DNA of 64,000 nt from Escherichia phage vB_EcoM_REC. The notes under the pieces are model-generated. The model was not told where the DNA came from. It did not search any database and was given only the letters and a program-made list of their open reading frames with translations. Made by a program: the position numbers and the translations under genes. The stretch lies in the sequence record OM386667.1; one strand, 5' to 3'. Shown one piece after another: positions 364-35,282 of this stretch; within the stretch, counting starts at the first letter, position 1; each line of letters starts with the position of its first letter.

Positions 364-366
364 TTA

Positions 367-5509: not shown

Positions 5510-5512
5510 CAG

Positions 5513-5537: not shown

Positions 5538-5550
5538 ATGGAGGGTTTAA

Positions 5551-8223: not shown

Positions 8224-8225
8224 GA

Positions 8226-8252: not shown

Positions 8253-8279
8253 ATAAAAACTCTTTATAAATCAATAAGA

Positions 8280-9167: not shown

Positions 9168-9183
9168 TATTATCTCCTCTATA

Positions 9184-9576: not shown

Positions 9577-9621
9577 TGAATGCTATCCTATCATAAAATG
9601 TTTAATATTGTCAAGCTTTAA

Positions 9622-10426: not shown

Positions 10427-10603
10427 TGTTTTCTCCTTATACCTCTAAACGGAAAGTTTCTTTAGATACAAAATCGTATCCACCTTTTTCAAGCCAGTCA
10501 TTGTAAACCTCATCAGCTTGAGACTCTATCATAAAATACCGAGTGGTAATTTCGTCTCCGACAATACGCACAATTTTATAGCAAATCATGATACCATTTC
10601 CCA

Positions 10604-10795
10604 TTAATCTTCCTCCAGATCAATTTCATTATAGCAATGTATGCAGTAGCCATCGTTGTGCATATGTTGTTCATAAGACATATCTTTACCACAAGACCAA
10701 CAACGAATATCGCCATCGTCCCATTCACGTTCTTCTTCGCCTTCAAATGCATCTGGTAGGTAAGGCATACCAAGACAATCTAAATCGTAATGCAT
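10604..10795 (-). CDS. small Cys-rich (zinc-ribbon-like) protein
   Basis: start moved to the internal ATG at 10795 preceded by AGGAGGA; CWSCG...CIHC pairs; the longer track ORF would overlap the polymerase. Confidence 0.35.
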   Translation of the reverse strand: MHYDLDCLGMPYLPDAFEGEEEREWDDGDIRCWSCGKDMSYEQHMHNDGYCIHCYNEIDLEED

Positions 10796-10844
10796 ATCTC
10801 CTCCTATAAAGGGGCAGAAGCCCCTTATAAAACAATATGTTAGA

Positions 10845-18526: not shown

Positions 18527-19474
18527 CTACAAACTTTCAATAACCTGGCGTCGCAACTCGTTTGCATCTGCCAGATTATAATGTGTTCGAACATGTTCAG
18601 CCAAGAACAAGCCACGATCTTCCCGATAGTTTGGATTGCGAAGAAGCTTAACAATTTCGTAATGCCATTCTGCTTTATTCTCTGCGTAAGCAACAGCGCG
18701 AGCATCTACAGGGTTAAAATAAGGTAATACCTTAGAACAAACAATCGGAATACCTTTTGCTCCAGCTTCCAGGATTTTGAGATTACTTTTACAATTATTA
18801 AAATCATTGTCTACCAAAGGAGCTATAGCAATAGCATGACTTTCGTAAACACTCATGTAATTATCTAAATCTTTTACAGCAGCTTTATATTTGGCATTTG
18901 GTAAATTTCTGCGAATCTTAATCCACTCTTGTCCCGTGATGCTTTGTGATGCTTCATATCCCGCAATAGTAAGAAGTTCATCATCGAAAGTATTAGAGAC
19001 TAGTCGTAAATCTGGTTCGTGACTAGCACCGCCAGCCCATACAACAGGGGTACCGGATGAACGATCATTTGACAAAGTGAATTGTCCGCTATCAAAAGGA
19101 AGTGCATTTCGGATCACAACGACATTTCTATTTAAGTGACGGATCTTATATGCCAAATATTCTGTAGTCACAATAACCACATCAGCAAGCTTAACCATAG
19201 CTACAATAGCATGAGTGTTTGACTCGTATAGACTTGCTAAATAATGCTCTGGATTAAGTTGGTAAAAATCATCTAAATCTACAACAACCTTAACACCTTG
19301 ACGTTTCAAAGATAAAACGTATTCTGCACCTTTAGAGTGGATACGGTTAAACACAACAATATCTTTCTTAGGTTGAAAATTATTGTTGTTAAATGGCATA
19401 ACAATACGATGATAGTCACAACCGCTATGAGGTTTTGCATCAATTTTTAGTTTAGACCATTTTTTATTTGACAT
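18527..19474 (-). CDS. putative glycosyltransferase (GT-B-like), paralog 2
   Basis: shares KSNLKILEAGAKGIPIVCS and other blocks with paralog 1; start moved to the internal ATG (19474) that aligns with paralog 1 and avoids a 50-bp overlap; longest ORF would start at 19513. Confidence 0.45.
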   Translation of the reverse strand: MSNKKWSKLKIDAKPHSGCDYHRIVMPFNNNNFQPKKDIVVFNRIHSKGAEYVLSLKRQGVKVVVDLDDFYQLNPEHYLASLYESNTHAIVAMVKLADVVIVTTEYLAYKIRHLNRNVVVIRNALPFDSGQFTLSNDRSSGTPVVWAGGASHEPDLRLVSNTFDDELLTIAGYEASQSITGQEWIKIRRNLPNAKYKAAVKDLDNYMSVYESHAIAIAPLVDNDFNNCKSNLKILEAGAKGIPIVCSKVLPYFNPVDARAVAYAENKAEWHYEIVKLLRNPNYREDRGLFLAEHVRTHYNLADANELRRQVIESL

Positions 19475-20147
19475 GTGCCAGTGCCTCCTCATAGGAAATT
19501 CGGATTTTCCCATTTTTAATATCCTCTAAAGATGCTTTATATTCTTCCCAGTTAATCCCGATAGCAGCTTCTTTCTCTTCTTTTGTCAGATTAGCAAAAG
19601 GCATAGGGTTGTTTCCAAAAACATCGTCTGGGTGGATATAAGCCATGATACGAAGTGGACAAGGTGTTGCCTGAATACCATGATTCAAACCAGCAGCTTG
19701 CAAACGGTGTCCCCATTCAGCATCTTCAAAACCATAGCCGTGAGTGTAAGGACGGAAATAACCCATCTTCTCAACAACGGCACGAGAATACATTGCAAAT
19801 TGACACATTGCAAGTTCCCAGAGAATAACTTCTCCTTTGCTTCCAACAACTTTATCTTTGAAATACTCCGGCATACCAAAGAAATCCCATCCTCCAGAGA
19901 CAGCTTGATCTACAAAGTATGTTTCCCATCCCTCCATGACTGGGTAGCAATCGTCGTCAAAAATAAACCAATAATCATAACCTTCTTCATAAAACTGGTG
20001 CATAAGTTCATTCCTGGCATAAGCTACACCTTTACGATCTGGATCGTTGAATACTCGAAAATCTGCACGTGGATCTGTTACAAGGTAGTCTTTAAGTGGA
20101 CGGACACCTACAGTGATAACACCCACTCCAATTTTAATATTTTCCAT
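19464..20147 (-). CDS. putative glycosyltransferase, GT-A fold (family 2-like)
   Basis: 227 aa; N-terminal GVGVITVGVRP, KGVAYARNELM, and FIFDDDCYP (DxD-type metal/nucleotide-sugar motif). Confidence 0.45.
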   Translation of the reverse strand: MENIKIGVGVITVGVRPLKDYLVTDPRADFRVFNDPDRKGVAYARNELMHQFYEEGYDYWFIFDDDCYPVMEGWETYFVDQAVSGGWDFFGMPEYFKDKVVGSKGEVILWELAMCQFAMYSRAVVEKMGYFRPYTHGYGFEDAEWGHRLQAAGLNHGIQATPCPLRIMAYIHPDDVFGNNPMPFANLTKEEKEAAIGINWEEYKASLEDIKNGKIRISYEEALAHVK

Positions 20148-20155
20148 TTTCTCTC

Positions 20156-20719
20156 CTAAATAGTTTTACTGTGATCATGACAGTGTAATAAATGATGTAT
20201 AGACCGTTGAGGATTTGTTTGACCTAATCTGTAAATGTGAAACAGATACATTCCCCGCATCAATCCTAACCTCTTTCCTTTTTCATGTAAAGTGCGAGAG
20301 AAAATTAAGTCGAATTGGATAGATTTTTCTTCGAAAGGAATTTCATTCCACAATGATTTTCTAAAAAGCAAGAAGAAACCTGCCAGAGGTGTTCCGAAAG
20401 GAACTTCTTCAACACTCACTTTATGATATTCTCTTGCAATCTTAGCATATTCTATATGGTTTAGAATATCTGGATCATCGTTAATTTGGTTAGAGAAAAG
20501 CTGATAACCACTGCCTAACCTGTTACAAGTTGCACCTATTACATCAAAAGGCGGGTTTGACATAACAAGCTCTTCAAGCATAGATGGTTGATCAGGTAGG
20601 AGGAACATTGTATCGGTATCTCTTAAACACACCCAACTATCATCTGGAAGAACGGCAATGGCTTTATTGATAGCCTTGCCGATATTTCCTGTCAGATAGG
20701 GAGTAATATAATAAATCAT
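20156..20719 (-). CDS. putative nucleotide-sugar transferase-like protein (GT-A-like, weak)
   Basis: 187 aa; IYYITPY...LPDDSWVCLRDTDTMF with acidic DTD motif. Confidence 0.3.
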   Translation of the reverse strand: MIYYITPYLTGNIGKAINKAIAVLPDDSWVCLRDTDTMFLLPDQPSMLEELVMSNPPFDVIGATCNRLGSGYQLFSNQINDDPDILNHIEYAKIAREYHKVSVEEVPFGTPLAGFFLLFRKSLWNEIPFEEKSIQFDLIFSRTLHEKGKRLGLMRGMYLFHIYRLGQTNPQRSIHHLLHCHDHSKTI

Positions 20720-21420: not shown

Positions 21421-21942
21421 TTAACTCCCCTTTGGTAGATAGAAACCATGCACTTTATCTCGATAAACAAGACGCATATCACGTTCCCAGTGTGTCCTTA
21501 TATTCCGTTTCTTGAAGTATAGAGCACCTTTAGTAACATCTAAAACAGACCGCAATTCAGGAAAATGTTTCTCTAAATAAAGTAAACGCTCCGCTATTGC
21601 TTTTGCTTCCTGCCACTTATCTTTCTCTGTTACGTTAAAAGTTTTCGCATATGAGAATTGTCCTTTCTGGAACAAGACTCCTCTGACTGTGTTAGGGAAG
21701 TAGGTATCATTTCTTCTGTTGATTACCACATTCCCAACGGCATTCATTCCTTTTTTACCCAGACCGCGACCTTCTGCGTAAATTGCACAAGCTAATAGAA
21801 TTTTATCATTATATTGCTTTGTACATTTGTGAACTACTTTAGCGGTTTTTACGTTTGCAGCTTCGGCTTTCGCCACAACAGGTGTAAATGTAAAAGCAGT
21901 TAAGGATAGTAACGCAACTGTTACAAAGTTTTTTATCAGCAA
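21421..21942 (-). CDS. secreted cell-wall hydrolase, SleB-like
   Basis: 173 aa; N-terminal signal peptide (LLSLTAFTFTPVVAKA); core LLACAIYAEGRGLGKKGMNAVGNVVINRRNDTYFPNTVRGVLFQKGQFS resembles the SleB-type hydrolase signature. Confidence 0.55.
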   Translation of the reverse strand: MLIKNFVTVALLSLTAFTFTPVVAKAEAANVKTAKVVHKCTKQYNDKILLACAIYAEGRGLGKKGMNAVGNVVINRRNDTYFPNTVRGVLFQKGQFSYAKTFNVTEKDKWQEAKAIAERLLYLEKHFPELRSVLDVTKGALYFKKRNIRTHWERDMRLVYRDKVHGFYLPKGS

Positions 21943-22041
21943 ATTTTGCCTCCTTTTTAAGTTAACGAATTTCTAGTATAACACGATAGAGGCTTTATTG
22001 CAAGAGGGGGATTTCTCCCCCTCAAAATCATTTGTTAATTA

Positions 22042-22644
22042 TTATGGACATTCATACCATTCTTTTTTACCACCGAAGGCCATCACCACATCACAAATAT
22101 CCAGACCAGCTTTACCTACACCATATGCTTTCAGCTTCCATTCCCCATCTTCACGAACCAAGGAAGCCACGTGGCAGATTGTGTTGCCAGCTACTTCAGG
22201 AGCCAGGAAGTCAAAATCCAGAATTTCCACATTGCGCTCGGAGTCGAAGATTTTAAGCATACCTTCAGAAGCATGACCAAAACGTTTCAGACCTGTATCA
22301 TCATCAATGGTCAGAACAAAGGCAATCTCTTGTGCATCAGGAGAGATTTTAGCCAAAGTAATATCAATCTGCTCCATGCTGCCAGTTCCATCACGAACAT
22401 CGTCACCAGCGAAGGTAGAACGTTCAGGATCAAACTTGTTAGCATAGCAAACCAGATGACGTGCAGACAGCATTTCAGGATTACCAGCGGCATTGTGACG
22501 ACAAACCAGTGCACTTACATCCAGATCCAGTTTAGAATCAGATTTCCAAGAGAATTCCAGGCGCAGTTCTTTCAGAGCCGGAGCAACTTTCTTCAGGGAA
22601 ATTTTTTCGCTAGAGCCTTTTTTCAGGGAAATTTTATCAGTCAT
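22042..22644 (-). CDS. terD: TerD-family protein (tellurite-resistance TerD domain)
   Basis: 200 aa; N-terminal doubled ISLKKG/ISLKKV strand, DLDVSAL, GDDVRDGTGSMEQI, IAFVLTIDD, GEWKLKAYGVGKAG follow the bacterial TerD pattern closely. Confidence 0.85.
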   Translation of the reverse strand: MTDKISLKKGSSEKISLKKVAPALKELRLEFSWKSDSKLDLDVSALVCRHNAAGNPEMLSARHLVCYANKFDPERSTFAGDDVRDGTGSMEQIDITLAKISPDAQEIAFVLTIDDDTGLKRFGHASEGMLKIFDSERNVEILDFDFLAPEVAGNTICHVASLVREDGEWKLKAYGVGKAGLDICDVVMAFGGKKEWYECP

Positions 22645-22659
22645 CTTTTGTCTCCTCTA

Positions 22660-22929
22660 TTATTTAAGTGTAATACCAGTTACAGTCAATTCTACTTCCA
22701 AAAGCTTAGATGTGTTTTGGATTGATACTAATTGTGCATGATGGTTTAGTTCTACAGCAGAATAATCATTTTCCCCATCATCTACTTTTAAATAAACAAT
22801 GATTTCACTAAGGTCTAAACCATTTTCGTCAAATGCATTTTCATAGACGAAAGTATCTCCTACATCCAAATCTTTAATGGTAAGGCATCGTTTATTTACT
22901 TTTTGCTCATCAATTTCGAAGTTTAACAC
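22660..22929 (-). CDS. small protein, paralog of 23951-24229
   Basis: 89 aa; shares DLDVG.TF.Y..A..E.GLD ... E.TVT.ITLK with the ORF upstream of the vWA gene. Confidence 0.4.
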   Translation of the reverse strand: MLNFEIDEQKVNKRCLTIKDLDVGDTFVYENAFDENGLDLSEIIVYLKVDDGENDYSAVELNHHAQLVSIQNTSKLLEVELTVTGITLK

Positions 22930-23158
22930 TTCTTCCTCCTAATGTTATCTCCGGTTTGTATATACGAAGAATTATAGCATTTTCATTTTCTTTGTCAACC
23001 CATTCTTCATAATCGGGCCATACATGAATCTCCACTCTACTTACAATATCTTCCATTCGCACAGTCCCAATGAAATACTCTTTGAGACTGCGCATAATGA
23101 AAGCTTCTCTCTCGCGCCAATAATTTTCTATGACTTGAGAGGCAAGCTCGTCGATCAT
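22910..23158 (-). CDS. hypothetical protein
   Basis: 82 aa ORF. Confidence 0.35.
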   Translation of the reverse strand: MIDELASQVIENYWREREAFIMRSLKEYFIGTVRMEDIVSRVEIHVWPDYEEWVDKENENAIILRIYKPEITLGGRSVKLRN

Positions 23159-23949
23159 TTTTTAGCACCTACTTTAACAACCCACTCTCCGAACTCTTCA
23201 GATAAGAGTTTGTCATAAAGCTCTGAATCTGTCAAGTCTAAATCTTTAATGCCAATAAAACCAACATTATCATAAGCATTTGCCAGTTCTTTCAGGAACC
23301 CAAACTTCTCATTACCAACGCCAACCATGAACCAATAAATAGGTTTATTCTTATTCTCTTCAATAAGACGACGAACAGCACTAGGATCACCATTCTCACC
23401 ATCCGTCTGGAAGAATACAACACCAGGGGTAACGTCAGCACCTGGTTCAGATACAGCTACAACTTTTTCACGCTCTACAGACACTGTTTCAGTTTTACCA
23501 AGCAGACGATTAAAGAAGCCTTTCTTTGGAGCCTCCTCTTGTACCACTTGTTTAGTGGTAATATATTTGGTAACAGTGCCAAAATACTCACCGTAGATAT
23601 CTGCCATTACAGGGGCGTAATTTGTTCCACCTCCGATACGAACATTACGCATACATTTACCAACATAGTCATCGTAAACGTCTGCTGTTGCTGGAGTAAG
23701 CTCTTGGGAACTCGTATTGAAGGCCCACATATCAATTTGTTGATTATCGTCGAACAGCATACCAAAAGGAAGCAGTTTACCTACAAAATCACTCACTACC
23801 CCACTAGAATATAGACCATGCATACTACCAGAAATATCTAGAGCACATGCTACACGAAGAACAATCTTACCTTCATTCAGGTTCTTATTCTTTTTCAGAG
23901 AGAAAGCAAGGTTTTCTTGACGTTTTTTCAGGCTGATTTTCTCGGACAT
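23155..23949 (-). CDS. von Willebrand factor A (vWA) domain protein with TerD-like N-terminal strand
   Basis: 264 aa; MIDAS motif DISGSM, later FFQTDGENGD; N-terminus MSEKISLKK...AFSLKK echoes the TerD N-terminal motif. Confidence 0.65.
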   Translation of the reverse strand: MSEKISLKKRQENLAFSLKKNKNLNEGKIVLRVACALDISGSMHGLYSSGVVSDFVGKLLPFGMLFDDNQQIDMWAFNTSSQELTPATADVYDDYVGKCMRNVRIGGGTNYAPVMADIYGEYFGTVTKYITTKQVVQEEAPKKGFFNRLLGKTETVSVEREKVVAVSEPGADVTPGVVFFQTDGENGDPSAVRRLIEENKNKPIYWFMVGVGNEKFGFLKELANAYDNVGFIGIKDLDLTDSELYDKLLSEEFGEWVVKVGAKK

Positions 23950-23950
23950 A

Positions 23951-24229
23951 TTATTTCTCCTTCTTAAGTGTAATATTGGTAACTTCTAAATCTACTTCCA
24001 CCATATTTGTATCTGGTGGGATGCAATGAGTATAGCCTCGTTGTGCTAGTGATCCATTAATACAAATCGCACTGTTTGTGGAATTTTTAATGAACACCAA
24101 GTTACGGTAGGTATCCAACCCTGCGTCTTCATAGGCATCATAATACATGAATGTTGCCCCTACGTCAAGATCTTCGAAAGCAATAGGTAAATCTTGACTT
24201 TTTTCTTCTTGAATATTGAATCTAAACAC
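23951..24229 (-). CDS. small protein, paralog of 22660-22929
   Basis: start placed at the GTG (24229) preceded by AGGAGG at 6-nt spacing, which removes a 74-bp overlap of the longest ORF. Confidence 0.4.
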   Translation of the reverse strand: MFRFNIQEEKSQDLPIAFEDLDVGATFMYYDAYEDAGLDTYRNLVFIKNSTNSAICINGSLAQRGYTHCIPPDTNMVEVDLEVTNITLKKEK

Positions 24230-24785
24230 GCATACCTCCTCTACCAATTTTGAAGCCCAAATCGTAAGCTTCCTTAGTGATCTTTTGTAACTCACTTATA
24301 GGAAGTGTTACAAGAGGATCATCTTCTTCAATTTCCATCTTGTCATCTTCTGTTTCAATGAGAGTATTATGCACTTTGTGATAAGGGTTGTCAACACGTT
24401 TAAACTTATTCTTTTCTGTGCTGAAAAAACAATCTGGATCTTCTTCACCATCACCCCAACCTTGGTTAGGATCTCCGTCAGATTGTTCTGTAGGGATTTC
24501 ACCTGTAAAGTACTCTTCCAGCACCATAGCGATACCGTCCCTTGGATTTGAGGAATGCATCAAATCACAAACCTTACTCCAATCCATAGCCCATTCAAAT
24601 CGTTCACGAACACCATTTTCATCCTCCTTTCCAGAGAAAACACAACCATAACTATCATAGTTCCCATACATCTCTTCAATAACAACACCGTCCTTCAAAA
24701 GAAAGAGGTAGCAAGGTGATCCGTCGAAAGAAGTAGAAAGGGCAGCTTTGCCCGATTCTTTGCACAAAAAGCTAAAACAACCCAT
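24222..24785 (-). CDS. hypothetical acidic protein
   Basis: 187 aa ORF. Confidence 0.4.
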   Translation of the reverse strand: MGCFSFLCKESGKAALSTSFDGSPCYLFLLKDGVVIEEMYGNYDSYGCVFSGKEDENGVRERFEWAMDWSKVCDLMHSSNPRDGIAMVLEEYFTGEIPTEQSDGDPNQGWGDGEEDPDCFFSTEKNKFKRVDNPYHKVHNTLIETEDDKMEIEEDDPLVTLPISELQKITKEAYDLGFKIGRGGMRV

Positions 24786-25183
24786 TACAAACCCTCCTTC
24801 AGATTATCAAGAGCTACAGTGGTTTCACAAAATTCTCCATAAGCTTTATGATGTTCCAGAAAAGCTTCGGGTCCACCCCAGTCATTATCTTGTGTATTCC
24901 AGCCATCAATAAAAGCATCTTCAATGATTGTGATCAGTTCCTGTCGAGTCAGCGTAATGGTATCAGGTTTCTGCGTAGTTTCCACACGGAACCCTGGTTC
25001 TTCATAAAAACCTTTAGTTACAATGGACTCTAACTCTTCTGCATCACAGAGGAAGTAGCCACAAAGATAACACCAACCGTCACCATCTTTCATTACTTCA
25101 TAAACTTCACCACTTGCTAACTTAGTGAAAAGAGTAGGGTCTGTTACTGTAAGTTTTAAAAGAATACCTGTTGGATTATACAT
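24785..25183 (-). CDS. hypothetical protein
   Basis: 132 aa ORF. Confidence 0.4.
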   Translation of the reverse strand: MYNPTGILLKLTVTDPTLFTKLASGEVYEVMKDGDGWCYLCGYFLCDAEELESIVTKGFYEEPGFRVETTQKPDTITLTRQELITIIEDAFIDGWNTQDNDWGGPEAFLEHHKAYGEFCETTVALDNLKEGL

Positions 25184-25349
25184 CTTCTTCCTCCTCTAAA
25201 ATATGGAACCCGTAATTACAATAATCCTGAAAGGTTTCGTGTGCAAGATCTTCTATATCCTCTTGAGACATATCATCTTCAATTTCGATATCCACAACCT
25301 CATTGCATCCACACCAAGCAGTTTCAATATTCACTCGTAATATTTTCAT
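25176..25349 (-). CDS. small acidic Cys-containing protein (57 aa), not in ORF track
   Basis: ATG overlaps upstream stop (TAATG); fills an otherwise empty 165-bp gap. Confidence 0.25.
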   Translation of the reverse strand: MKILRVNIETAWCGCNEVVDIEIEDDMSQEDIEDLAHETFQDYCNYGFHILEEEEDV

Positions 25350-25549
25350 TACTCCTCCTCCTCCTCATTGAAGTCAATATCTGCAAGGAGTTCGAATTTA
25401 CGGAAGTTACGACAACCTTCATAAATATAACAATCACGACAAACTGCTAGAACACTTGGGGGATATATGCCTCCCATCGGTGCGAATCGTTTTTCGTCAT
25501 CATAACGGACACCAATGTCTTCATCAATTATATAGATACGGATTCTCAT
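25349..25549 (-). CDS. hypothetical small protein with acidic tail
   Basis: 66 aa ORF ending EEEEE. Confidence 0.3.
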   Translation of the reverse strand: MRIRIYIIDEDIGVRYDDEKRFAPMGGIYPPSVLAVCRDCYIYEGCRNFRKFELLADIDFNEEEEE

Positions 25550-26658
25550 TTACCAAGCCCTCGTTTCACAGCAGCTACCATCCCGTCTTCCAGAGATTGA
25601 ACTTCATTAATATAATCAACACGAGCAGCACGGGCTTCCGTATTGATGCGGTTAGTTTCTTCCAACATCTTAACCAAGTTTTCCTGATCGTGACGCAGAG
25701 TTTCAATATCCAACACTTGACGGTTAGCCAGTGCTGCTGCTTCGATCTGATTCTGTGTGGCAAGATCGCTACCCAGTTTAATTGCCAGGTTAAATTCATC
25801 AAGAACGTTATTCTGCGTCTCTGCTGCTTTCATTTGACGTAAGCTCTCGATATACATTGAGAAGTTAGCAGAGTAAGCAGGAATAACATTATTTACTATG
25901 TTACGCGCAGATCGCATTAAGCTTGCAGAAACTTTTTGCATACCTTGTACACGCGGTCCCATTTGGACACACAGTAGGCGCAATGCTTTTAAATCTGCAA
26001 TACGAATCTCCAGAAGATCCAAAGTATCTCGGATCACTTGTCGCTGTTCTACTGCATCTTCTGGAAGAGCAGCCAAAGCTTGTTCTTCTTTTTCATAGGT
26101 TGCTGTTAGAAGCTGCATATCTCGGTTCAAACTTGCAGCATATTGTCCAATAGCTTGATGTAGCTTTTCAAGATATACCAAGGAATCTTCTTCTTTGCGA
26201 ATATCCATTTGAAGGTTCTTTACCAACTCTTCAATACGGTTATTAACATTATCAAACTCCCCGAACAGGTCTTCTTTCATACCCATAACTTTTTTAATGA
26301 GTTTAGTAATACCCTTACTTTGTTTAATAGAGTTTGGATCAAGTTGTTTTGCCTGTTTAATCAAAGCTGTGAGTCGTTCACTCATCTGATCGCCTTGATT
26401 ACTACGTTGATGTTTTAACACCTCGGCATTCAAGGAACGCAAGGTTGTTCCTGCCTCTGCCCCAATCTCTTCAATCTCTTGTCGGGTCATAGAAGGCAAA
26501 ACTGGAACTTCTTGCGGTGCCGCTGGTGCATAAACAGGACTGGCATCTAACACGCTTGGAGCGAATACAGATTTACTTGCATCTGTTGTTGCAGCAAATA
26601 CGCTCATTTCAGGCTTCTTCTGACCACCAGTAGCTGCTTTTAAAAATGGACTTGTCAT
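25546..26658 (-). CDS. TelA/KlaA-like coiled-coil protein (toxic-anion-resistance family), tentative
   Basis: 370 aa, predominantly helical/coiled-coil; size and composition fit TelA; the call rests largely on the Ter-gene neighbourhood. Confidence 0.35.
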   Translation of the reverse strand: MTSPFLKAATGGQKKPEMSVFAATTDASKSVFAPSVLDASPVYAPAAPQEVPVLPSMTRQEIEEIGAEAGTTLRSLNAEVLKHQRSNQGDQMSERLTALIKQAKQLDPNSIKQSKGITKLIKKVMGMKEDLFGEFDNVNNRIEELVKNLQMDIRKEEDSLVYLEKLHQAIGQYAASLNRDMQLLTATYEKEEQALAALPEDAVEQRQVIRDTLDLLEIRIADLKALRLLCVQMGPRVQGMQKVSASLMRSARNIVNNVIPAYSANFSMYIESLRQMKAAETQNNVLDEFNLAIKLGSDLATQNQIEAAALANRQVLDIETLRHDQENLVKMLEETNRINTEARAARVDYINEVQSLEDGMVAAVKRGLGK

Positions 26659-27245
26659 TCTTCATTCTCCTCTTCTGCATCTCTTATATATGGTGAAACA
26701 CCGTACTCTTTAGCTACTTTAACCCAATCGTCCCATTTATACAACCATAATTTTCCTTCGGTCCCTTCTTTATCTGATTTCAACCACATATTAGGTTGCT
26801 TACCTGGGTACATGCGATTAGGTTTACGATTATAACCTCTAACACATCTTGTCGCAAACCTATCTACCAGAACAAGAACATATTTATATTCGTGGTTCAA
26901 CGGCTCTTTGGAAGTGGCTTTAGGATTAGCCCCTAATTCTGCTGCCAGTTTTTGCCAATGAGCACCGTGCCTACTAAACTTACCCATACAACCATCAATA
27001 GCATGAGCAATTTCGTGCTTCATTGTATCCACGATCATATCTCTTGTGGAGTTCTTATGCAAGTGCCAATTTACAACAACAATTTTATCTCGGTAGTTGC
27101 ACCAACCGAAAGAGTTATTCACTTTGTTTCTAACACAAGCTTTATATCCTGCTTCACGTAACATGTTGTAGTAAACAGGAAAATCTTCTTTTATTTCCTG
27201 CATCACTTCCCACCACAAGAGTTGCAAGTCTCTCTCGGTATGCAT
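26655..27245 (-). CDS. SprT-like zinc metalloprotease domain protein
   Basis: 196 aa; HEIAHAIDGCMGKFSRHGAHW contains HExxH followed by GHxxxW as in SprT-like domains. Confidence 0.5.
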   Translation of the reverse strand: MHTERDLQLLWWEVMQEIKEDFPVYYNMLREAGYKACVRNKVNNSFGWCNYRDKIVVVNWHLHKNSTRDMIVDTMKHEIAHAIDGCMGKFSRHGAHWQKLAAELGANPKATSKEPLNHEYKYVLVLVDRFATRCVRGYNRKPNRMYPGKQPNMWLKSDKEGTEGKLWLYKWDDWVKVAKEYGVSPYIRDAEEENEE

Positions 27246-27248
27246 AAC

Positions 27249-27842
27249 TTACACCTTAAAAGCGAAATGCGTGGTCGTGGCTTCAAAATCAGGGCCAGAT
27301 AAACTTGCACTGAAATCTGAAATATTTGTAATTAAAAAGCTTTTATGCATACCTAACACAGCCACGCTTTCAATATCTTCTACTAACATTTCAATCATGT
27401 TAGAAACATGGCTGAACGTATAGTTTTGTTTTTTGATGGTGTAGAAAGAAAGACTCCCACCTGCTGTATAAGATACCTCTTCAAAATCTTTAATCGTATA
27501 TTGTGTGCCATCAGTAAAGAAAATGGTAGCTTTATTAGTAGCACGTTTCTTGTTTTTTGGTCCTTTTTTACGTTTACTGCGAGTAGGCAAACCGTTTGGG
27601 AACACCATAGCTACAAATTCTTCAGGAGAAACCTCCTTACCGAAATCATAACCGTAAGAAACAGCGTCTATAAACTCGTCGTCTTCATTTTTAAAATAAT
27701 GAAAATAGGGCCAATTTGAGAGATTATCGAGCATCTTATGCTCATCCACAGCAGAGAACGTATCCCTCAAAGCACGTGTGATTTGCAAAGCATTAGGCAA
27801 ACTTTTAACACCTGTAATGGAAGTACGAATAGAAATTGTCAT
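27249..27842 (-). CDS. hypothetical protein
   Basis: 197 aa ORF. Confidence 0.4.
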   Translation of the reverse strand: MTISIRTSITGVKSLPNALQITRALRDTFSAVDEHKMLDNLSNWPYFHYFKNEDDEFIDAVSYGYDFGKEVSPEEFVAMVFPNGLPTRSKRKKGPKNKKRATNKATIFFTDGTQYTIKDFEEVSYTAGGSLSFYTIKKQNYTFSHVSNMIEMLVEDIESVAVLGMHKSFLITNISDFSASLSGPDFEATTTHFAFKV

Positions 27843-27856
27843 TGTTTTTCTCCTTA

Positions 27857-28294
27857 TTAACGTCGCTTGCTACGAGATGAACTCTTTTTACTTAAAGGGC
27901 TATTGTAAGATTTACGAGTTGTATAGCTACTATTTGTTTTAAAAGTTTGTCTCGGCTTTTCATAAGTTTTTATCTCTTGTTTAGGCTTACCATAAAAATT
28001 AGTTTTCGGTTTAGGTGTATTATAATGCTTATTAATAATCGTTCTGTTATCGTTATAATCCCCACTGCTACGATTACTACCGCCACTCATCATATGCCCT
28101 AACAACATACCTGTAGCAAACTCACCAACACCGCTACTACTAGAACCGCCACCATTGTTGATAATAGTTGTATCTCCGTCAGATCCTTGTTGAGCGTATT
28201 GTTGAGGAGGTTGTTGGTATTGTGCAGGATTTGTTTCATCCTCGCAAGCTGTTAAAAAGATACAACCAATTAAAATCAGGGCTAGTTTTTTCAT
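27857..28294 (-). CDS. lipoprotein, Gly/Ser-rich with basic C-terminus
   Basis: start placed at MKKLALILIGCIFLTAC (lipobox LTAC) preceded by GAGGAAA RBS; C-terminus SKKSSSRSKRR. Confidence 0.5.
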   Translation of the reverse strand: MKKLALILIGCIFLTACEDETNPAQYQQPPQQYAQQGSDGDTTIINNGGGSSSSGVGEFATGMLLGHMMSGGSNRSSGDYNDNRTIINKHYNTPKPKTNFYGKPKQEIKTYEKPRQTFKTNSSYTTRKSYNSPLSKKSSSRSKRR

Positions 28295-28481
28295 ATTTGC
28301 TTTCCTCGTTTTGGCTATTAATACATCTGTGTTTGAAATCTCCAGAGAAGCAATAAAGTTGCTCTCCATCTCGGTATAAACTCACTTTACTGCCGTTGAT
28401 TACGCTTGTCAATACAAAAATTACAACAAACAACCCTATTGCAAAACAGATATTTTCAAACACAACCAACAAGTATTTCAT
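28236..28481 (-). CDS. small membrane protein (uncertain)
   Basis: 81 aa with hydrophobic N-terminus; overlaps the lipoprotein start region, so one of the two calls may be wrong. Confidence 0.25.
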   Translation of the reverse strand: MKYLLVVFENICFAIGLFVVIFVLTSVINGSKVSLYRDGEQLYCFSGDFKHRCINSQNEESKYEKTSPDFNWLYLFNSLRG

Positions 28482-28828
28482 TTTAAAAACACCTCATCAT
28501 CAGTCTCATTATCCCAGAAGAACAAATCCCAACCATTTGGATCATTCCATTTGGCTGCTGGAGAAGTCCATATTTGCTCAATATCAATATTCAAAACTTC
28601 ACCGTTTCGTTTTGAAACAGCTTTAGTTAATTCCCAACGAGATACAGGCTCTACTTCTCCTGAACCACTTCCACAACAAGCTACAACATTAGGAGGCAAA
28701 TTAATTGGATCTTTGGTCACAATCATAACGCTTACCCCAGGGTAAACTTTTGAAAGATAATCTGAAATGTAATCCACATCACCAGATAAATCCCAAACAA
28801 GTTCTTGAATTTCATCAAAATTACTCAT
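28478..28828 (-). CDS. hypothetical protein
   Basis: 116 aa ORF with AGGAGAG RBS. Confidence 0.4.
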   Translation of the reverse strand: MSNFDEIQELVWDLSGDVDYISDYLSKVYPGVSVMIVTKDPINLPPNVVACCGSGSGEVEPVSRWELTKAVSKRNGEVLNIDIEQIWTSPAAKWNDPNGWDLFFWDNETDDEVFLK

Positions 28829-28870
28829 AAGTCTCTCCTATAAAATAGCCTCCCGAAGGAGGCTCATTTA

Positions 28871-29845
28871 TTAAACAGTAGCTTCTTCTTTTTCAGGGAA
28901 GATAAAGCTTGCAATAACACCAAGAGCTAATGTGCCCAGGACAATATACATACTAATAGTTGGATCAATGTGCGCTGGCAGGAAGCTCATTTTTTCATGT
29001 AACGTTTCTGCAAACGGGTGATACATTAGTTTAACACCTACAAACACCAGAACCACAATAACTGCTTTCTCCAAGTGAACCAGATACTTCAGTGCAACAC
29101 TAAGAACAAAGAACAGAGCACGTAGACCTAAGATTGCACATAACATCGAAGAGAATACAAGCAGAGGTTCTTGTGTTACTGCGATCACTGCCGGAACAGA
29201 ATCTACTGCAAAGATTACATCAACCATTTCCATCACGAATACGCAAACCAAAGCTGGAGTTGCTACACGAACACCATTTTCGATTGTGAAGAACTTCTCC
29301 CCATCCATTTTATTAGATACAGGGAACAGTTTACGAACAATACGGGTAGCCCAGTGTTTAGAGTAATCAACTTCTGCGTCATTATTTCCAGCAAATACCA
29401 TTTTAGCTGCACAGAAAAGGATGACCGCACCGAAGAAGATATTAACATACCAGCCCAAACTTAACAAGTAAGTGCCTACTGCTACAAACACACCTCGGAA
29501 GACAATCGCACCTGCAATACCCCAAAGTAGAATCTTGTGCTGCAAGTGTGTGCTTTTAATACCAAAACTTGCGAATACTGCTACAAATACTACCAAGTTA
29601 TCTACCGACAAAGATTTTTCCAACACATATCCACTTAAAAACAAGTTAGCAAAATCGGCACCATGTTGGAAGTATACAAAACCATAATAAGCTAATGATA
29701 CACCAATCCAAAAGATCGACCAACCAACTGCGGATTTGAATGAAATTTCTTTATTTTCTTTGTGACCAAAGAAATCAATACCAATAGACAATGCTAAAAT
29801 ACCAACTAAAACAACTACATCAATAATTGGGAAACCAAGTTGCAT
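28871..29845 (-). CDS. terC: TerC-family integral membrane protein
   Basis: 324 aa, multiple TM helices; FGHKENKEISFKSAVGWSIFWIGVSLAY and LEKSLSVDNLVVFVAVF match the TerC/Alx signature. Confidence 0.85.
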   Translation of the reverse strand: MQLGFPIIDVVVLVGILALSIGIDFFGHKENKEISFKSAVGWSIFWIGVSLAYYGFVYFQHGADFANLFLSGYVLEKSLSVDNLVVFVAVFASFGIKSTHLQHKILLWGIAGAIVFRGVFVAVGTYLLSLGWYVNIFFGAVILFCAAKMVFAGNNDAEVDYSKHWATRIVRKLFPVSNKMDGEKFFTIENGVRVATPALVCVFVMEMVDVIFAVDSVPAVIAVTQEPLLVFSSMLCAILGLRALFFVLSVALKYLVHLEKAVIVVLVFVGVKLMYHPFAETLHEKMSFLPAHIDPTISMYIVLGTLALGVIASFIFPEKEEATV

Positions 29846-29924
29846 TCTTTTCTCCTCTCTTTGCGGGGAACTATTCCCCGCTTCATGTGATATATCTTAC
29901 TCTTTTTAAGAACTATGTCAACAC

Positions 29925-30146
29925 TTATTTTGTTGAATGAGAGGAAAAGATTCCTCGTAATACAGCCAGAATAAACGAAACACAAACCACGGTCCAGAAG
30001 GTTACTGGGACAGTGATATCTGCATGACCCATAACTTCAGCAACATAGTTGTAAGCCAGCAACAGTAACCAAGCTGGAATCAAACTAAGCATAAAAGCAA
30101 TAACAAAAAAGCTTACCACTGCAACAATACCTGCAAAAACACCCAT
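29925..30146 (-). CDS. small membrane protein (two predicted TM helices)
   Basis: 73 aa hydrophobic ORF. Confidence 0.4.
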   Translation of the reverse strand: MGVFAGIVAVVSFFVIAFMLSLIPAWLLLLAYNYVAEVMGHADITVPVTFWTVVCVSFILAVLRGIFSSHSTK

Positions 30147-30158
30147 ACTAATCTCCTC

Positions 30159-30632
30159 TTAAAGTTTATAAATAGTCACATCGTGACCTGTTTTTACTAA
30201 AGTTTCTTCAATCATCACTTGGATGATAGCCCAATTACCTCCAGCATATCCAGCGCCAATCATAGGTAAGCCGATCTTACATTTTTGGTCACGGAGAAGC
30301 AAATCGTTAGCCATAGCTATTAGTGCATCGTAAAGTGCATCATAGTCCAACTGACGACCTTTAGCATTGTATCCGTAACGGTATTGCCCGTATAGATTAT
30401 ATACCAAAGGGTCTGATTGTTCGTCTGGCACCCCTAAACTAAAACAACCTAGTTTACTTTGATCACCAGCCGTTGTGTCTAAGTCTGCTGCATATGCGTA
30501 AGGAAATGCTTGTTTGATTTGTGGGGCAATACCTGCCCCCATATTACACATACAGTTGCAACAATGAGCAATAACAGTTACTTCACCTGCTTTAGCGGCA
30601 TCAATAAGATTACCTGTTTTCATTTTAAGCAT
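30159..30632 (-). CDS. macro-domain-like protein (ADP-ribose / Appr-1-p processing family), tentative
   Basis: start placed at the internal ATG (30632) with AAGGAG RBS just after the upstream stop; VTVIAHCCNCMCNMGAGIAPQIKQAF and IGLPMIGAGYAGGNW resemble macro-domain nucleotide-binding loops. Confidence 0.4.
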   Translation of the reverse strand: MLKMKTGNLIDAAKAGEVTVIAHCCNCMCNMGAGIAPQIKQAFPYAYAADLDTTAGDQSKLGCFSLGVPDEQSDPLVYNLYGQYRYGYNAKGRQLDYDALYDALIAMANDLLLRDQKCKIGLPMIGAGYAGGNWAIIQVMIEETLVKTGHDVTIYKL

Positions 30633-30645
30633 TTTTAGCTCCTTA

Positions 30646-31473
30646 TTACAGAATGTGTTGTTTTGTGTAACGATCCAAGAATTCAAAGTTTTCAGCATAC
30701 TTTGAAATTCGGTTGTAACCTTCTCCCAAGCATCCAAAGAAAAGTTGCTCTACATAGTAATGTGGCAATTGGCTAAGAATGATTTTGAAGTCTTCATGAT
30801 TTTGGCCCATAAGATACTTAATAGGACGAACAAGACACTGTGCATCACGTTCTTCACTAATCATTTTAACAAACGCTTCTGGTGTATTAATGTAGTTAAA
30901 ATTCAGTTTAGCTTCGGTATCTGCTTGATTACCTTCGTATTTTGCAAAATACAAGAAGTAAACATCATTTTTAACTTGATTTTCATCAAGGATCTCAATC
31001 AGTTTGTCTTCATGCGTTCCAGTGATATTTACATCATCAATGAATACAAGCTTCTTATCACCCCAGAATTCTTTGTTGCAGTAGAATGTATCACCATCAA
31101 TAAGTTTCTTACGACTAGCTTTATCCAAGAAACCATAATCGTTGATATAGCTAACTTTACGATGAATAATGTCCAGTTCTGCTGAACGACCTTGATCATA
31201 TTGTGATTGCAACATATTAAAATAATTAATAAAATGATCTGTCATCATTGTTGCAGCATTATGCACATGGTTATAAGGAGAAGGAATGATAACAAATTGT
31301 TCCCCAATATGTTTCATTGCCACTTGAGCAAAAAACTGAAGTGCCAATTCTTTACCCATACGACGCGCAGCTTGGTTACTACCAAATTTCAATTTTGAAT
31401 AATCTTGGATATCAAAAGTAGCAGTTTCCAGGTCATCAAATTTATTTGCAAAAATTTGAGTTTGATTACGCAT
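30646..31473 (-). CDS. phosphoribosyltransferase (PRTase type I)-like protein
   Basis: 275 aa; KLVFIDDVNITGTHEDKL matches the PRPP-binding loop pattern (hydrophobic run, DD, then TG-T). Confidence 0.5.
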   Translation of the reverse strand: MRNQTQIFANKFDDLETATFDIQDYSKLKFGSNQAARRMGKELALQFFAQVAMKHIGEQFVIIPSPYNHVHNAATMMTDHFINYFNMLQSQYDQGRSAELDIIHRKVSYINDYGFLDKASRKKLIDGDTFYCNKEFWGDKKLVFIDDVNITGTHEDKLIEILDENQVKNDVYFLYFAKYEGNQADTEAKLNFNYINTPEAFVKMISEERDAQCLVRPIKYLMGQNHEDFKIILSQLPHYYVEQLFFGCLGEGYNRISKYAENFEFLDRYTKQHIL

Positions 31474-32122
31474 TTACAATTTCTCCTCTTTTAAGTTTCT
31501 CTAGTAAGTCGTTAGGGTTCTTAATATGACAGAAGTTAAATCCTAAGTCAACACATTTTCCATCATATTCTTCACTATCGCCTACGTGCAACACTTCGTG
31601 CCCTAACAGAGGGATCGGAGAATACGTGAGCGTGCGAGCAAAGAATCGCGGATCTGGTTTACAAAGTAAAGCTTCATCCGAGAAATGGGTGAACTCAAAA
31701 CAATTCCAACTATCAAACTTACAAGCACGACGCAGGATATCCCCTGATATGAAGTTGGTATTGCTCTTAATACTCAAATCATAACGCCCCGAAAGATACA
31801 GCAAGTACATCGGCAGATCCACGGCTACGTGTGGTGGAAACTTAAGGAACCACTGTTCACACTCGAAACGAAGCTTTGCAGACTTCCAAGGCGTTATCCC
31901 AAGTTCAGAACCAAGTCTTTCCCAGGCGTATGCTGCACACTCGGCTTTGCCTTGAAGTGCTGCATTATCCAGTTCCTTTTTGATCTTCTTATAAGCTGCT
32001 CTTGCTTCCACTTCCGTAATATCTCCATATTTTGCGATAGTCCAGGCTCGCATGTCTGCGTAATTGGAGTTTGCTGTGATCAGTGTGTTCCATACATCAA
32101 AAGAGATATGTTTAATAGTCAT
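31466..32122 (-). CDS. HAD-superfamily hydrolase (phosphatase)
   Basis: 218 aa; motif I ISFDVWNTL (D-x-W-x-T variant), motif III LCKPDP, motif IV HVGDSEEYD. Confidence 0.6.
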   Translation of the reverse strand: MTIKHISFDVWNTLITANSNYADMRAWTIAKYGDITEVEARAAYKKIKKELDNAALQGKAECAAYAWERLGSELGITPWKSAKLRFECEQWFLKFPPHVAVDLPMYLLYLSGRYDLSIKSNTNFISGDILRRACKFDSWNCFEFTHFSDEALLCKPDPRFFARTLTYSPIPLLGHEVLHVGDSEEYDGKCVDLGFNFCHIKNPNDLLEKLKRGEIVNA

Positions 32123-32123
32123 A

Positions 32124-32729
32124 TTAAGCCCACCATGCGTCTAAGTTAAGATTACTGTCTACCACAACTTGTTCTATGTGGTAGCCTTTTATCTGTATCC
32201 CACTGTTCAAGAGCATATCATACGCTTCATTGAAACGCAACTTATCTTCTGCGGAATATAAGCGAGCATTATAAAATCGGTAATCAATTTCTTCAGCATT
32301 AGAAGAAATACGGAAGAAGTTTGTTTCTACTTCGGGATCACTTGCTGAAGTCTTAATGTGAACTTCTCCATAATTTTCTTTACTTAGATCCATGAAAAGA
32401 ACACAGGCAACATGTTTAAACATTCGTTCCAGTTTGTAACGAACAACATTGAAACCTGCATTCTCAAGTTTTTCTACACACTGCAACATTAAAGTAGTGT
32501 CGAGATCGCTTTGATACTTTGTTAACATACGATCACGTTGAGACTTTGTATCCCGATGTAAATCAATTGTTGTGCATTTGGCACCAATAATCTTAGCTGC
32601 TTTCATCAACTCTTCAGAACTAACGTTAGATAAAGTAAGATGAAAATGGGCTTTCCACACTTTTTTAGCAGGGACACCAAAAGATTTATCCCCACTATTC
32701 GGCATGTTGACTACTACACTATGTTGCAT
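32124..32729 (-). CDS. hypothetical protein (one H-x-T-x motif; possible 2H-phosphoesterase relative, unproven)
   Basis: 201 aa; KAHFHLTLSN contains a single H-x-T-x tetrapeptide; a second clear motif was not found. Confidence 0.35.
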   Translation of the reverse strand: MQHSVVVNMPNSGDKSFGVPAKKVWKAHFHLTLSNVSSEELMKAAKIIGAKCTTIDLHRDTKSQRDRMLTKYQSDLDTTLMLQCVEKLENAGFNVVRYKLERMFKHVACVLFMDLSKENYGEVHIKTSASDPEVETNFFRISSNAEEIDYRFYNARLYSAEDKLRFNEAYDMLLNSGIQIKGYHIEQVVVDSNLNLDAWWA

Positions 32730-33420: not shown

Positions 33421-35282
33421 AGATGTTTCTCCCTTTGCAAAACTTCCTGCATTTTACCTTTGTTGTAAGGCCGTGAATTAGGGGCAGAAAGATACCCTGA
33501 TACACGTCTAACTACAGAAATAGTTTCTTCTTCATGGTTGCCACAATCAGGACACTCAAACCCTTTAGCCGTTGCCTTAAATTCTCCATGAAAACCACAC
33601 TTAAAGCATTGATCCACGGGCTGATTAATACCAAAATAGTGAATATGTTCATAAGCGTAGTCTACTAAAGTCTCCAAAGCTTCTAAGTTATTCTTTAAGT
33701 TTGGTGTTTCGACATAACTTATGTTACCACCATTACTAATCTGTGCAAAACCTGCTTCATAATCCCATTTTTCAAAAGGATTTGTTACCAACCATACAGG
33801 TTGATGAAAAGAGTTAGTAAGATAGTCTCTTTCTACCAAACTTGGGTATTTTTCATTTAAAGCTGTTGCAAACTTATAGCACAAAGATTCTGCTGGAGTT
33901 CCATAGAGACTAAACGCCAGCTTAGATCGTTCTTTAAACACAGCACACACATCTTTCATATGTTGCAGAATGCTTTTACCAAGTTCCTTTTTATCTTTTT
34001 CTTCTGGATAAAGGATTTCCAAAGCTTCGGCAAGACCTACATAACCAATACTAATAGAAGCATAACCACCTTCAAACAAAACACCAATTTCATCATTGGC
34101 ATTTAAACGCGCTAAAGCCCCTTCCATGAAAAGAATAGGGTTTTCAGATGCTTTGGTATGTCTGATACGGTTTACACGTAGCATGTGAGCATCGTAGGCT
34201 ATCTCCATATGTTTATTAAGAAGATCGGTGAAAGATTCTCCTTTACTTCTCGCTTCCGCAGCGATCAGAGGTAAGTTGATAGAAACTACTCCAAGGTTGA
34301 ATCGTCCATCGTATTTTTCTCCTTGTTCGGTGGCATAGTACGACAAAAAGGAACGACAACCCATACTCGTAACAGTACCATCTGCTGATCCCGTAACTTC
34401 TTTGTTCAAAGGAACAGAAATAAAATCTGGATAAATACGATCAGCACAACATGCCAAAGCTTGTTGCTTAAGGTCATAGTTAGGATCACTAGGTTTCATG
34501 TTAACACCTTCTTGTAAAAAGAAAATAACTTTAGGGAATACAGGCGTTACATGATCTTTGCCTAGACCGTTACTATGCACTTTAAGATAGTTAGCTGTAA
34601 TCATTCTGCCAAAAACAGAGGTATCCAGACCCATACTGATTGTAATAAAAGGAGATTGTCCATTAACACTCATTAAAGTATTAACCTGATACAAGAGAGT
34701 TTGCATAGCATCGTATACATCTTGTTCGGTCATTTCTAGGGCTTCTTTCCTTGCATAACAACCGTAGCGACGTTTGGTTATCTCCATGTTTTTAAGGAAA
34801 CTAGCTTCAACATAAGGACTAAGACCTTTATCAATGTGCGCACACGTGAAACTAGCTTCAACATAAGGACTAAGACCTTTATCAATGTGCGCACACGTCT
34901 GACCTCCATACTGACTGGAGGCAACAGCTTGGATAATTTGAGTTAGCACTGTGGTAGCTACCCCAATAGATTTTGGTTTTTCTATCTGTGCGGCTCCGAT
35001 CTTAAAACCATTCTCTAACATATCTTGATAATTAACAAGACAACAGTTTGTAAGAGGAGAGAGTAGATAATCCAAGTCGTGAATATGTCCAAAACCTTCT
35101 GTATGCCACTCTGACAAGTTTTTTGGCAGTATCTGTGTCATTGCCATATGTTTGCTTAAAATCCCCGCCAAGAGATCCCTATGCGTGTTAACGAGGTGGG
35201 AAGGTTTGTTTGCATTCTCTCTAGTGTATGTTTCTGAAGTGCGATCTAAAAAAGAAAAAACATCTTGGTACAAATCTTTCAT
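33417..35282 (-). CDS. nrdD: anaerobic ribonucleoside-triphosphate reductase
   Basis: 621 aa; C-terminal zinc ribbon CFKCG...CPDCG followed by glycyl-radical motif RVSGYL; carries a 17-aa in-frame tandem duplication. Confidence 0.9.
   Translation of the reverse strand: MKDLYQDVFSFLDRTSETYTRENANKPSHLVNTHRDLLAGILSKHMAMTQILPKNLSEWHTEGFGHIHDLDYLLSPLTNCCLVNYQDMLENGFKIGAAQIEKPKSIGVATTVLTQIIQAVASSQYGGQTCAHIDKGLSPYVEASFTCAHIDKGLSPYVEASFLKNMEITKRRYGCYARKEALEMTEQDVYDAMQTLLYQVNTLMSVNGQSPFITISMGLDTSVFGRMITANYLKVHSNGLGKDHVTPVFPKVIFFLQEGVNMKPSDPNYDLKQQALACCADRIYPDFISVPLNKEVTGSADGTVTSMGCRSFLSYYATEQGEKYDGRFNLGVVSINLPLIAAEARSKGESFTDLLNKHMEIAYDAHMLRVNRIRHTKASENPILFMEGALARLNANDEIGVLFEGGYASISIGYVGLAEALEILYPEEKDKKELGKSILQHMKDVCAVFKERSKLAFSLYGTPAESLCYKFATALNEKYPSLVERDYLTNSFHQPVWLVTNPFEKWDYEAGFAQISNGGNISYVETPNLKNNLEALETLVDYAYEHIHYFGINQPVDQCFKCGFHGEFKATAKGFECPDCGNHEEETISVVRRVSGYLSAPNSRPYNKGKMQEVLQREKHL
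34797..34898. repeat. perfect 51-bp tandem duplication (2 copies) inside nrdD
   Basis: GAAACTAGCTTCAACATAAGGACTAAGACCTTTATCAATGTGCGCACACGT at 34797-34847 and again at 34848-34898; encodes TCAHIDKGLSPYVEASF twice. Confidence 0.9.

Follow-up and report, generated by a model that had tools for sequence, protein, structure and literature searches.

In Bacillus subtilis, the chromosomal yceCDEFGH genes of the tellurite resistance (Ter) families encode three TerD proteins together with TerC and TelA, are linked to envelope stress and controlled by stress sigma factors, and include no von Willebrand factor A (vWA), phosphoribosyltransferase (PRTase) or HAD gene. The Ter block analyzed here, located in a 64,000-nucleotide stretch of Escherichia phage vB_EcoM_REC (OM386667.1; hereafter the window), has the same compact combination of TerD, TerC and TelA but adds a vWA protein and a PRTase/HAD pair. 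Bacterial Ter clusters carry terZABCDEF together with terY, PP2C and kinase genes and with PRTase and HAD biosynthetic genes (Anantharaman, Iyer and Aravind, 2012, as summarized in PMC7824862). They have TerD, TerC, TelA, TerF/TerY-type vWA, PRTase and HAD families in common with the phage block; the phage, however, has one TerD gene rather than the TerZ/A/D/E/F series, and no TerB, PP2C, kinase or ATP-grasp domain was found in the 20 open reading frames (ORFs) scanned between 21421 and 32729, where only a single gene encodes a TerD domain. TerB and the extra TerD paralogues (TerZ/A/E) are accessory rather than universal parts of Ter systems. The phage set differs further in its one vWA protein without a TerD domain, in its predicted phage early promoters and in being carried by a virulent phage. 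Present in the block are the elements by which the Aravind group defines a Ter system, namely TerD, TerC and TelA with a TerF/TerY-type vWA protein, linked PRTase and HAD genes and a conserved neighborhood.

The vWA protein also recalls the TerY-P anti-phage system, which consists of a TerY vWA protein, a PP2C phosphatase and a Ser/Thr kinase. It is, however, of the TerF C-terminal type and not of the TerY type, no PP2C or kinase domain was detected in the block, and no PADLOC model matched the vWA protein or any other of the six core proteins delimited below.

Ter systems have previously been described in phages. Iyer et al. (2021; PMC7824862) reported them in Acinetobacter jumbo phage ME3 and Caulobacter jumbo phages, one with PRTase and HAD genes, and proposed a role in superinfection exclusion; four tellurite-resistance genes were described, with the same suggestion of exclusion, in the Phapecoctavirus phage ZCKP1 (PMC6141743), and terC, terF-vWA, terD and telA were listed for phage phiKp34 (PMC8386662). 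The block of vB_EcoM_REC resembles these systems in placing Ter genes on a virulent phage, once with PRTase and HAD genes and with exclusion of rivals as the proposed function. The published papers, however, delimit no core, do not treat the Stephanstirmvirinae and report neither an invariant HAD→PRTase_3 pair nor its stand-alone occurrence, the ZCKP1 paper speaking only of "four genes". Papers on ESCO37, BME3, the O177 phages and the BASEL collection, to which the phi92-like phages Bas60-62 belong (PMC8594841), make no mention of Ter genes. The finding presented here is real and conserved but not new in kind; the present analysis adds the limits of a core of six genes, the HAD→PRTase_3 pair as an invariant unit that also occurs by itself, the removal of the macro domain from the set and a multi-promoter architecture.

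The six-gene core and its distribution

The Ter genes form part of a run of ORFs on the minus strand at 22042-32729 (all features of the block given below lie on this strand). The best explanation of this block is a streamlined, bacterium-derived Ter stress-response module on a virulent myovirus of the phAPEC8 group, a reading that, taken whole, we consider evenly poised between holding and failing. We are nearly certain of the identity of the module and of its core, which comprises six genes: HAD, PRTase_3, TerC, TerD, vWA and TelA. An earlier model-generated reading of the letters of the window (the original prediction) had named TerD, vWA, TelA, TerC and PRTase proteins, and profile searches recovered all five at the positions given for them (Pfam E 3e-28 to 1e-41); the motifs it quoted, a doubled ISLKK, GEWK..YGVGKAG, DISGSM and LEKSLSVDNLVVFVAVF, are present. 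Its HAD and macro assignments were likewise borne out, falling below the Pfam cutoff but supported by NCBIfam, by Protein Data Bank (PDB) entry 2om6, by the DarG macro domain and by phrog_335.

The TerD domain protein (22042-22644; PF02342, E 3e-28) matched the TerD structures 2kxt and 3ibz in the PDB (E 1e-15). The gene at 23155-23949 encodes a TerF-type vWA protein with a metal-ion-dependent adhesion site (MIDAS) and an N-terminal TerD-like ISLKK strand (PF10138 vWA-TerF-like, E 4e-37), and its MIDAS is intact (DISGS..T..D residues), with DISGSM, GGTNY and QTDGE legible in the sequence. The TelA-like coiled-coil protein (25546-26658) matched PF05816 over nearly its full length (E 3e-33) and phrog_5890, annotated "tellurite resistance", at E 1.5e-139.

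TerC, a membrane protein of the Alx subfamily (28871-29845; PF03741, E 1e-38), matched the TIGR03718 TerC/Alx model at E 4e-95, its 318.8 bits standing above the curated cutoff of 246.4 and thereby likening it to E. coli Alx, which has been reported as a Mn2+ exporter (PMC10197570). Different from E. coli alx, which has a riboswitch leader, the phage terC is preceded by a sigma-70 promoter and a short hairpin; no Rfam family, including the yybP-ykoY/PRE type found before alx, reached its gathering score anywhere in the window. An origin by recent capture from the host was considered and rejected: no DNA match to chromosomal alx was found across 5,426 E. coli genomes, and the phage terC is therefore not a recent copy of it. 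No other protein of the block is nearly as conserved as TerC, which is 95% identical to TerC of phage phi92 against 49-81% for neighboring proteins, a pattern that, judged by sequence, points to exchange of TerC or to extreme constraint on it. On one unrelated contig (L042), TerC is 60-77% identical to TerC of the Stephanstirmvirinae, and the other Ter proteins of that contig only 18-53%.

The HAD-IA hydrolase gene (31466-32122) is the first of a HAD→PRTase pair and overlaps the start of the PRTase gene by 8 nt. Its product matched Pfam Hydrolase under the gathering score (E 4e-4), the NCBIfam HAD-IA/REG-2-like model at E 2e-8 and PDB 2om6 at E 8e-5, with which it shares an identical FDVWNTL motif. 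Within this HAD family, Asp9, S/T, Lys155 and GDxxxxD (motifs I-IV) are invariant, and the Asp+2 position is an invariant Trp. The second gene (30646-31473) encodes a PRTase_3 (ComF-like) type I PRTase (PF15610, E 1e-41), whose phosphoribosyl pyrophosphate (PRPP) loop, FIDDVxITGTH, does not vary among 47 homologues. An AlphaFold2 model of the PRTase (pLDDT 92.6) has a type I PRTase core with a C-terminal helical domain, for which Foldseek returned HGPRT/HGXPRT, ComF and PyrR as the nearest solved folds (probability 1.0). Within the block, GenBank uses the labels TelA-like, integral membrane protein, general stress protein 16U, putative orotate PRTase and putative phosphatase. The "orotate" label has no specific support, because no sequence match of the PRTase to any solved PRTase structure was found and its best fold matches are 6-oxopurine PRTases at low identity (11-17%).

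The 10.7-kb Ter block is 100% identical to that of Escherichia phage vB_EcoM_ESCO37 (Stephanstirmvirinae, Phapecoctavirus), and 64 phage records cover at least 80% of it; the PRTase of ZCKP1, also a Phapecoctavirus, is 99.3% identical. Searches of phage records by tblastn found the PRTase in 156 and TerD in 148. Block and gene order are kept across the subfamily Stephanstirmvirinae, including phi92, in 134-156 phage records (~130-150 genomes). The set recurs in jumbo and other phages and has been published, and its description as unusual in the original prediction did not hold. Phage phi92 (Justusliebigvirus) has the same order, HAD-PRTase-macro-73aa-TerC-...-TelA-...-vWA-TerD, with protein identities to the window from 49% (HAD) up to 95% (TerC), and is without the 201-aa ORF, the SprT-like gene and one of two small paralogues. 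The sister subfamily Vequintavirinae was not among the TerD or PRTase matches in the phage collection, suggesting that such phages get by without Ter.

Loci gathered through the PRTase from metagenomic phage contigs, IMG/VR, GTDB genomes and plasmids were scanned with home-made hidden Markov models. TerC, TerD and vWA genes lie within 10 kb of HAD-PRTase in the Stephanstirmvirinae and in six divergent phage loci whose PRTases are 41-51% identical; these six show at least four gene orders, and TelA was detected in four of them. Such recurrent co-localization in rearranged orders indicates that the association is not due to chance. Pairwise-identity matrices gave the same lineage groups in all six families with the exception of TerC, which looks exchanged or unusually constrained. 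The parallel that had been drawn with bacterial Ter clusters carrying PRTase and HAD genes was supported by gene-neighborhood comparison, above all in a Tannerella metagenome-assembled genome (MAG), where TerD (three genes), TerY vWA (three genes), PP2C, kinase, HAD, PRTase_3 and P-type ATPase genes make up a textbook bacterial Ter cluster. In Bacteroidetes MAGs, HAD-PRTase is found among TerD and TerY genes (L026) or among TerD and TerC genes (L025). All loci examined, in phages, on a rhizobial plasmid and in Bacteroidetes, have HAD directly upstream of PRTase_3.

IncHI2-type plasmid ter clusters were considered as a source of the PRTase and rejected, as the only matches of tblastn against plasmids were the HAD-PRTase pair of rhizobia and a single one in Hymenobacter. 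In Rhizobium phage RHph_TM2_3B (L028, 4519-6855), HAD-PRTase_3 is found near genes annotated as dihydrofolate reductase, nicotinamide mononucleotide (NMN) adenylyltransferase/NUDIX and PurA, with no Ter gene nearby; in this T4-like phage, the context gives a hint that the pair by itself may have a function connected with nucleotides or NAD. A contig filed as "Proteobacteria MAG" but really of the same phage type (L012, 9352-10005) has a HAD protein 77% identical to that of the window beside a PRTase that is 99% and a flanking 201-aa protein that is 100% identical, which, at the sequence level, suggests local mosaicism of the HAD gene.

Transcription layout

The original prediction had treated the genes as one minus-strand unit. 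The shared strand was confirmed; the single unit was not, since several predicted promoters and terminators divide the block, which is not one operon. A perfect sigma-70 consensus promoter (TTGACA-16-TATAAT with extended TG, 22971-22998) stands ahead of the small paralogue B gene and terD and is the only 12/12 sigma-70 match in the window. A near-consensus promoter (TTGACA-17-CATAAT, 24366-24394) precedes paralogue A and the vWA gene, and a sigma-70-like promoter (TTGACA-16-TAAGAT, 29894-29921) precedes terC, followed by a hairpin in the 5' untranslated region (29880-29864); the position homologous to this terC promoter is annotated as a promoter in phages phAPEC8 and ASO2A. An intrinsic terminator lies directly after terC (28847-28864) and a GC-rich hairpin after the terD stop codon (22004-22023), where the module ends ahead of the promoter of a SleB-like lysin; both homologous sites are annotated as terminators in ASO2A. 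A further terminator is predicted before nrdD (35378-35358). The module adjoins the anaerobic nrdDG genes and replication genes, as had been predicted for its position.

Across the whole window, 15 sigma-70 matches with at most one mismatch were counted, whereas Markov simulations gave an expectation of 1.85 (maximum 6), an eight-fold enrichment. Those in the minus-strand block of the module point in the direction of the genes, and two near-consensus ones lie inside the module. This enrichment in near-consensus promoters suggests that the Ter genes may be read early by host RNA polymerase, and the core genes, spread over several transcription units with host-type sigma-70 promoters, are probably early genes.

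Neighboring genes and other features of the window

Two small proteins of phrog_11278 are encoded in the block, paralogue A (23951-24295) directly upstream of the vWA gene and the 89-aa paralogue B (22660-22929) directly upstream of terD; they are 33% identical (E 3e-13). Each is preceded by a near-perfect sigma-70 promoter and followed by a protein with an ISLKK strand (TerD or vWA), and phi92 has one copy. The arrangement suggests that a cassette consisting of a small ORF and a TerD-strand protein was duplicated in tandem long ago. Upstream of the vWA sub-cluster lies a conserved 187-aa protein (24222-24785; phrog_14928) that is 76% identical in phi92 and has no Pfam match.

Around TerC, a hydrophobic 73-aa protein with two transmembrane segments (29925-30146; phrog_16065; 60% identical in phi92) is encoded directly upstream of terC, and an 81-aa membrane protein (28236-28481; phrog_17591; 49% identical in phi92) and a predicted lipoprotein (27857-28294; MKKLALILIGCIFLTAC; start as in the ESCO37 annotation) are encoded nearby. 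The lipoprotein has the lipobox LTAC and a Gly/Ser-rich basic C-terminus, and in phi92 the homologue, gp180, carries a signal-peptide annotation. Small membrane proteins and the lipoprotein between terC and telA are kept in phi92.

The macro domain protein (30159-30632), which is T4 Tk.4-like and DarG-like, reached E 4e-4 and 20.6 bits in Pfam Macro against a cutoff of 22, and matched the DarG macro domain (E 1e-8 and 3e-10) and phrog_335 (E 1.5e-53). It had been counted as part of the Ter set, a claim ruled out by its distribution: the family occurs in 2,917 phage records, far more than the ~150 for Ter genes, is represented in rV5 by gp204 ("tk.4") with no Ter gene annotated in the stretches of rV5 that were read, and is absent from the divergent phage Ter loci.

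Two further genes are lineage-specific neighbors. The 201-aa protein (32124-32729; phrog_22504) has no Pfam match but matched "AbiEi" in PADLOC (E 5e-13), and its AlphaFold2 model (pLDDT 82) has a tandem ferredoxin-like fold with no convincing match in the PDB. Residues H28, H30, T32, E122, H124, K126, R151 and R156 are invariant in its family (34 clusters), whose members in other phages are not beside HAD-PRTase, one of them (L011) being directly upstream of an Acb1 homologue; the protein may be an anti-defense enzyme or an antitoxin mimic. The SprT-like protein (26655-27245; PF10263, E 4e-9), of a zinc metalloprotease fold with HExxH, has an end that overlaps the TelA start and is also present in contigs L032 and L033. 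Macro, 201-aa and SprT-like proteins are neighbors whose roles are probably separate, possibly in anti-defense.

Outside the block, the SleB-like cell-wall hydrolase gene (21421-21942), annotated as endolysin, matched Hydrolase_2 (E 2e-17) and has a hydrophobic, signal-like start (MLIKNFVTVALLSLTAFTFTPVVAKAEA), suggesting that the lysin is secreted or held by a signal anchor. Three consecutive genes immediately downstream of the module (18527-20719) are annotated as glycosyltransferases in the relative EF1-1 and may modify the cell surface or DNA. The nrdD gene contains a perfect in-frame 51-bp tandem duplication at 34797-34898 (17 aa, TCAHIDKGLSPYVEASF twice) that is absent from ESCO37, EF1-1, ASO2A, phAPEC8 and contig L012; it could be an isolate variant, an assembly artifact or an edit. 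Apart from this duplication, the window matches ESCO37 at 100% identity from position 12429 to its end. The family-A DNA polymerase gene (ORF 10845-14177, minus strand) has a 730-bp in-frame insertion at 11699-12428 relative to ESCO37 (1110 versus 865 aa), with a weak Intein_splicing match below the cutoff (E 0.009), and is probably interrupted by a mini-intein. Positions 1-11698, comprising the tail-fiber, depolymerase and ssb region, are only ~96.5% identical to ESCO37, with no match at 7302-8244; this divergence of the left 11.7 kb indicates that the window comes from a mosaic relative.

Possible roles of the module

The original prediction had offered metabolite synthesis, control of membrane stress and counter-defense as candidate functions of the set. 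Family knowledge allows a course of action to be proposed. The genes would be expressed early from host-type promoters; the PRTase would couple a base to PRPP, yielding a nucleoside 5'-monophosphate, and the HAD protein would strip the 5'-phosphate to leave a free nucleoside-like ligand. TerD, vWA and TelA would assemble beneath the inner membrane with the Alx-type TerC, whose family exports Mn2+, and the envelope and the flux of divalent cations (Mn/Ca) in the infected cell would be altered. As the most likely benefit, superinfecting phages and colicins would then be excluded, as they are by plasmid and chromosomal ter operons, and as a secondary effect the envelope might be kept intact until lysis. 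In bacteria, both phage inhibition and colicin resistance are lost when transposons insert into terC, terD or terZ (Whelan, 1995, as cited in PMC12054061), and deletion of terC in Klebsiella pneumoniae gives bigger plaques and sensitivity to Zn and Mn (PMC12054061). That the HAD-PRTase pair makes a nucleoside-like ligand could, in our judgement, equally well prove right or wrong, and exclusion of competitors as the selective benefit is a tentative and somewhat doubtful proposal. A more specific version, in which HAD→PRTase_3 makes a dedicated nucleoside-like signal and TerD, vWA, TelA and TerC are its receptor and effector, forming a phage-encoded, small-molecule-controlled envelope gate against competing phages, is unlikely to hold in full.

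Several observations weigh against a Ter stress-response module of this kind. Phosphatase chemistry of the HAD protein is assumed, the general-acid Asp+2 being replaced by Trp, and the PRTase resembles the fold of 6-oxopurine PRTases only weakly (TM score 0.37-0.47). In TerD, one Ca2+-binding loop is degenerate, reading GTGSME versus GDGDDE, while other phage TerDs keep GDDE; DxD, D82 and E91 are retained, and part of one Ca2+ site is predicted to be lost in this lineage. The history of TerC is partly independent of that of the other five families according to the identity matrices. A scan of ~10 kb around HAD-PRTase detected no Ter gene at seven divergent phage loci, nor at the rhizobial plasmid and genome loci that were examined; such stand-alone loci, which include T4-like Rhizobium phages and jumbo phage XaC1, make up about half of the divergent phage loci, so that signaling from the pair to Ter proteins is not a necessity. 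The literature yielded no experiment on a Ter gene of any phage. Finally, ESCO5 and ESCO37, both carriers of the module, co-infect and recombine (PMC10269720), and any exclusion would therefore not be absolute against kin.

Among the alternatives, the one that survives best would be a housekeeping role without any part in competition: the module would buffer envelope stress and Mn2+/Ca2+ through TerC/Alx export, metal binding by TerD and vWA and membrane support by TelA, keeping the host productive through a long infection. Consistent with this, TerC is a bona fide member of the Alx subfamily with its reported Mn2+ export (PMC10197570) and, at 95% identity between genera, the most conserved protein of the block; conserved small membrane proteins and a lipoprotein lie nearby, and the anaerobic nrdDG genes adjoin. 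This account, however, leaves the co-traveling ligand-synthesis pair unexplained; the Vequintavirinae, not found among the TerD and PRTase matches, manage without Ter, and the phenotypes of bacterial ter genes include phage and colicin exclusion (PMC12054061). We regard a purely housekeeping role as rather unlikely.

A counter-defense role, in which the HAD-PRTase product or the Ter proteins would jam host Ter or nucleotide-signaling immunity together with the macro protein (by reversing ADP-ribosylation) and the 201-aa protein, is quite improbable. The resemblance of the macro protein to the DarG macro domain argues for it, as do the "AbiEi" match of the 201-aa protein, whose homologue is beside an Acb1 homologue in another phage, and the location of HAD-PRTase near the annotated NMN adenylyltransferase/NUDIX gene in Rhizobium phages; yet the macro and 201-aa proteins are unlinked to the Ter core outside this lineage, and the six core proteins are without any PADLOC match. 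Moreover, E. coli K-12 MG1655, on which relatives of vB_EcoM_REC were isolated according to the host field of their records, is not known to have a ter operon of its own. That the genes form no unit at all, being independently acquired accessory genes that act separately in one early-gene region, would fit the several promoters and terminators, the HAD-PRTase pairs that stand alone and the discordant history of TerC, but is very unlikely given that the six families co-localize in at least four rearranged orders at 41-50% PRTase identity and that Bacteroidetes MAGs have the pair surrounded by TerD genes together with TerY or TerC genes, which is not chance.

A streamlined, bacterium-derived Ter module bears on a long-standing problem. 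For some 30 years, Ter operons have been associated with virulence and with resistance to tellurite, colicins and phages, and a nucleoside-like product is predicted for them. In phages, Ter is reduced to a natural minimal set, six genes free of paralogue redundancy, which is carried by virulent phages that grow on E. coli K-12 and is readily amenable to gene deletion, heterologous expression and metabolomics. If the module excludes rival phages, it would be relevant to the design of phage cocktails, phAPEC8- and phi92-like phages being popular candidates for therapy. This smallest naturally co-inherited Ter set could, if the envelope is indeed gated by a signal, reveal the Ter ligand and how Ter works.

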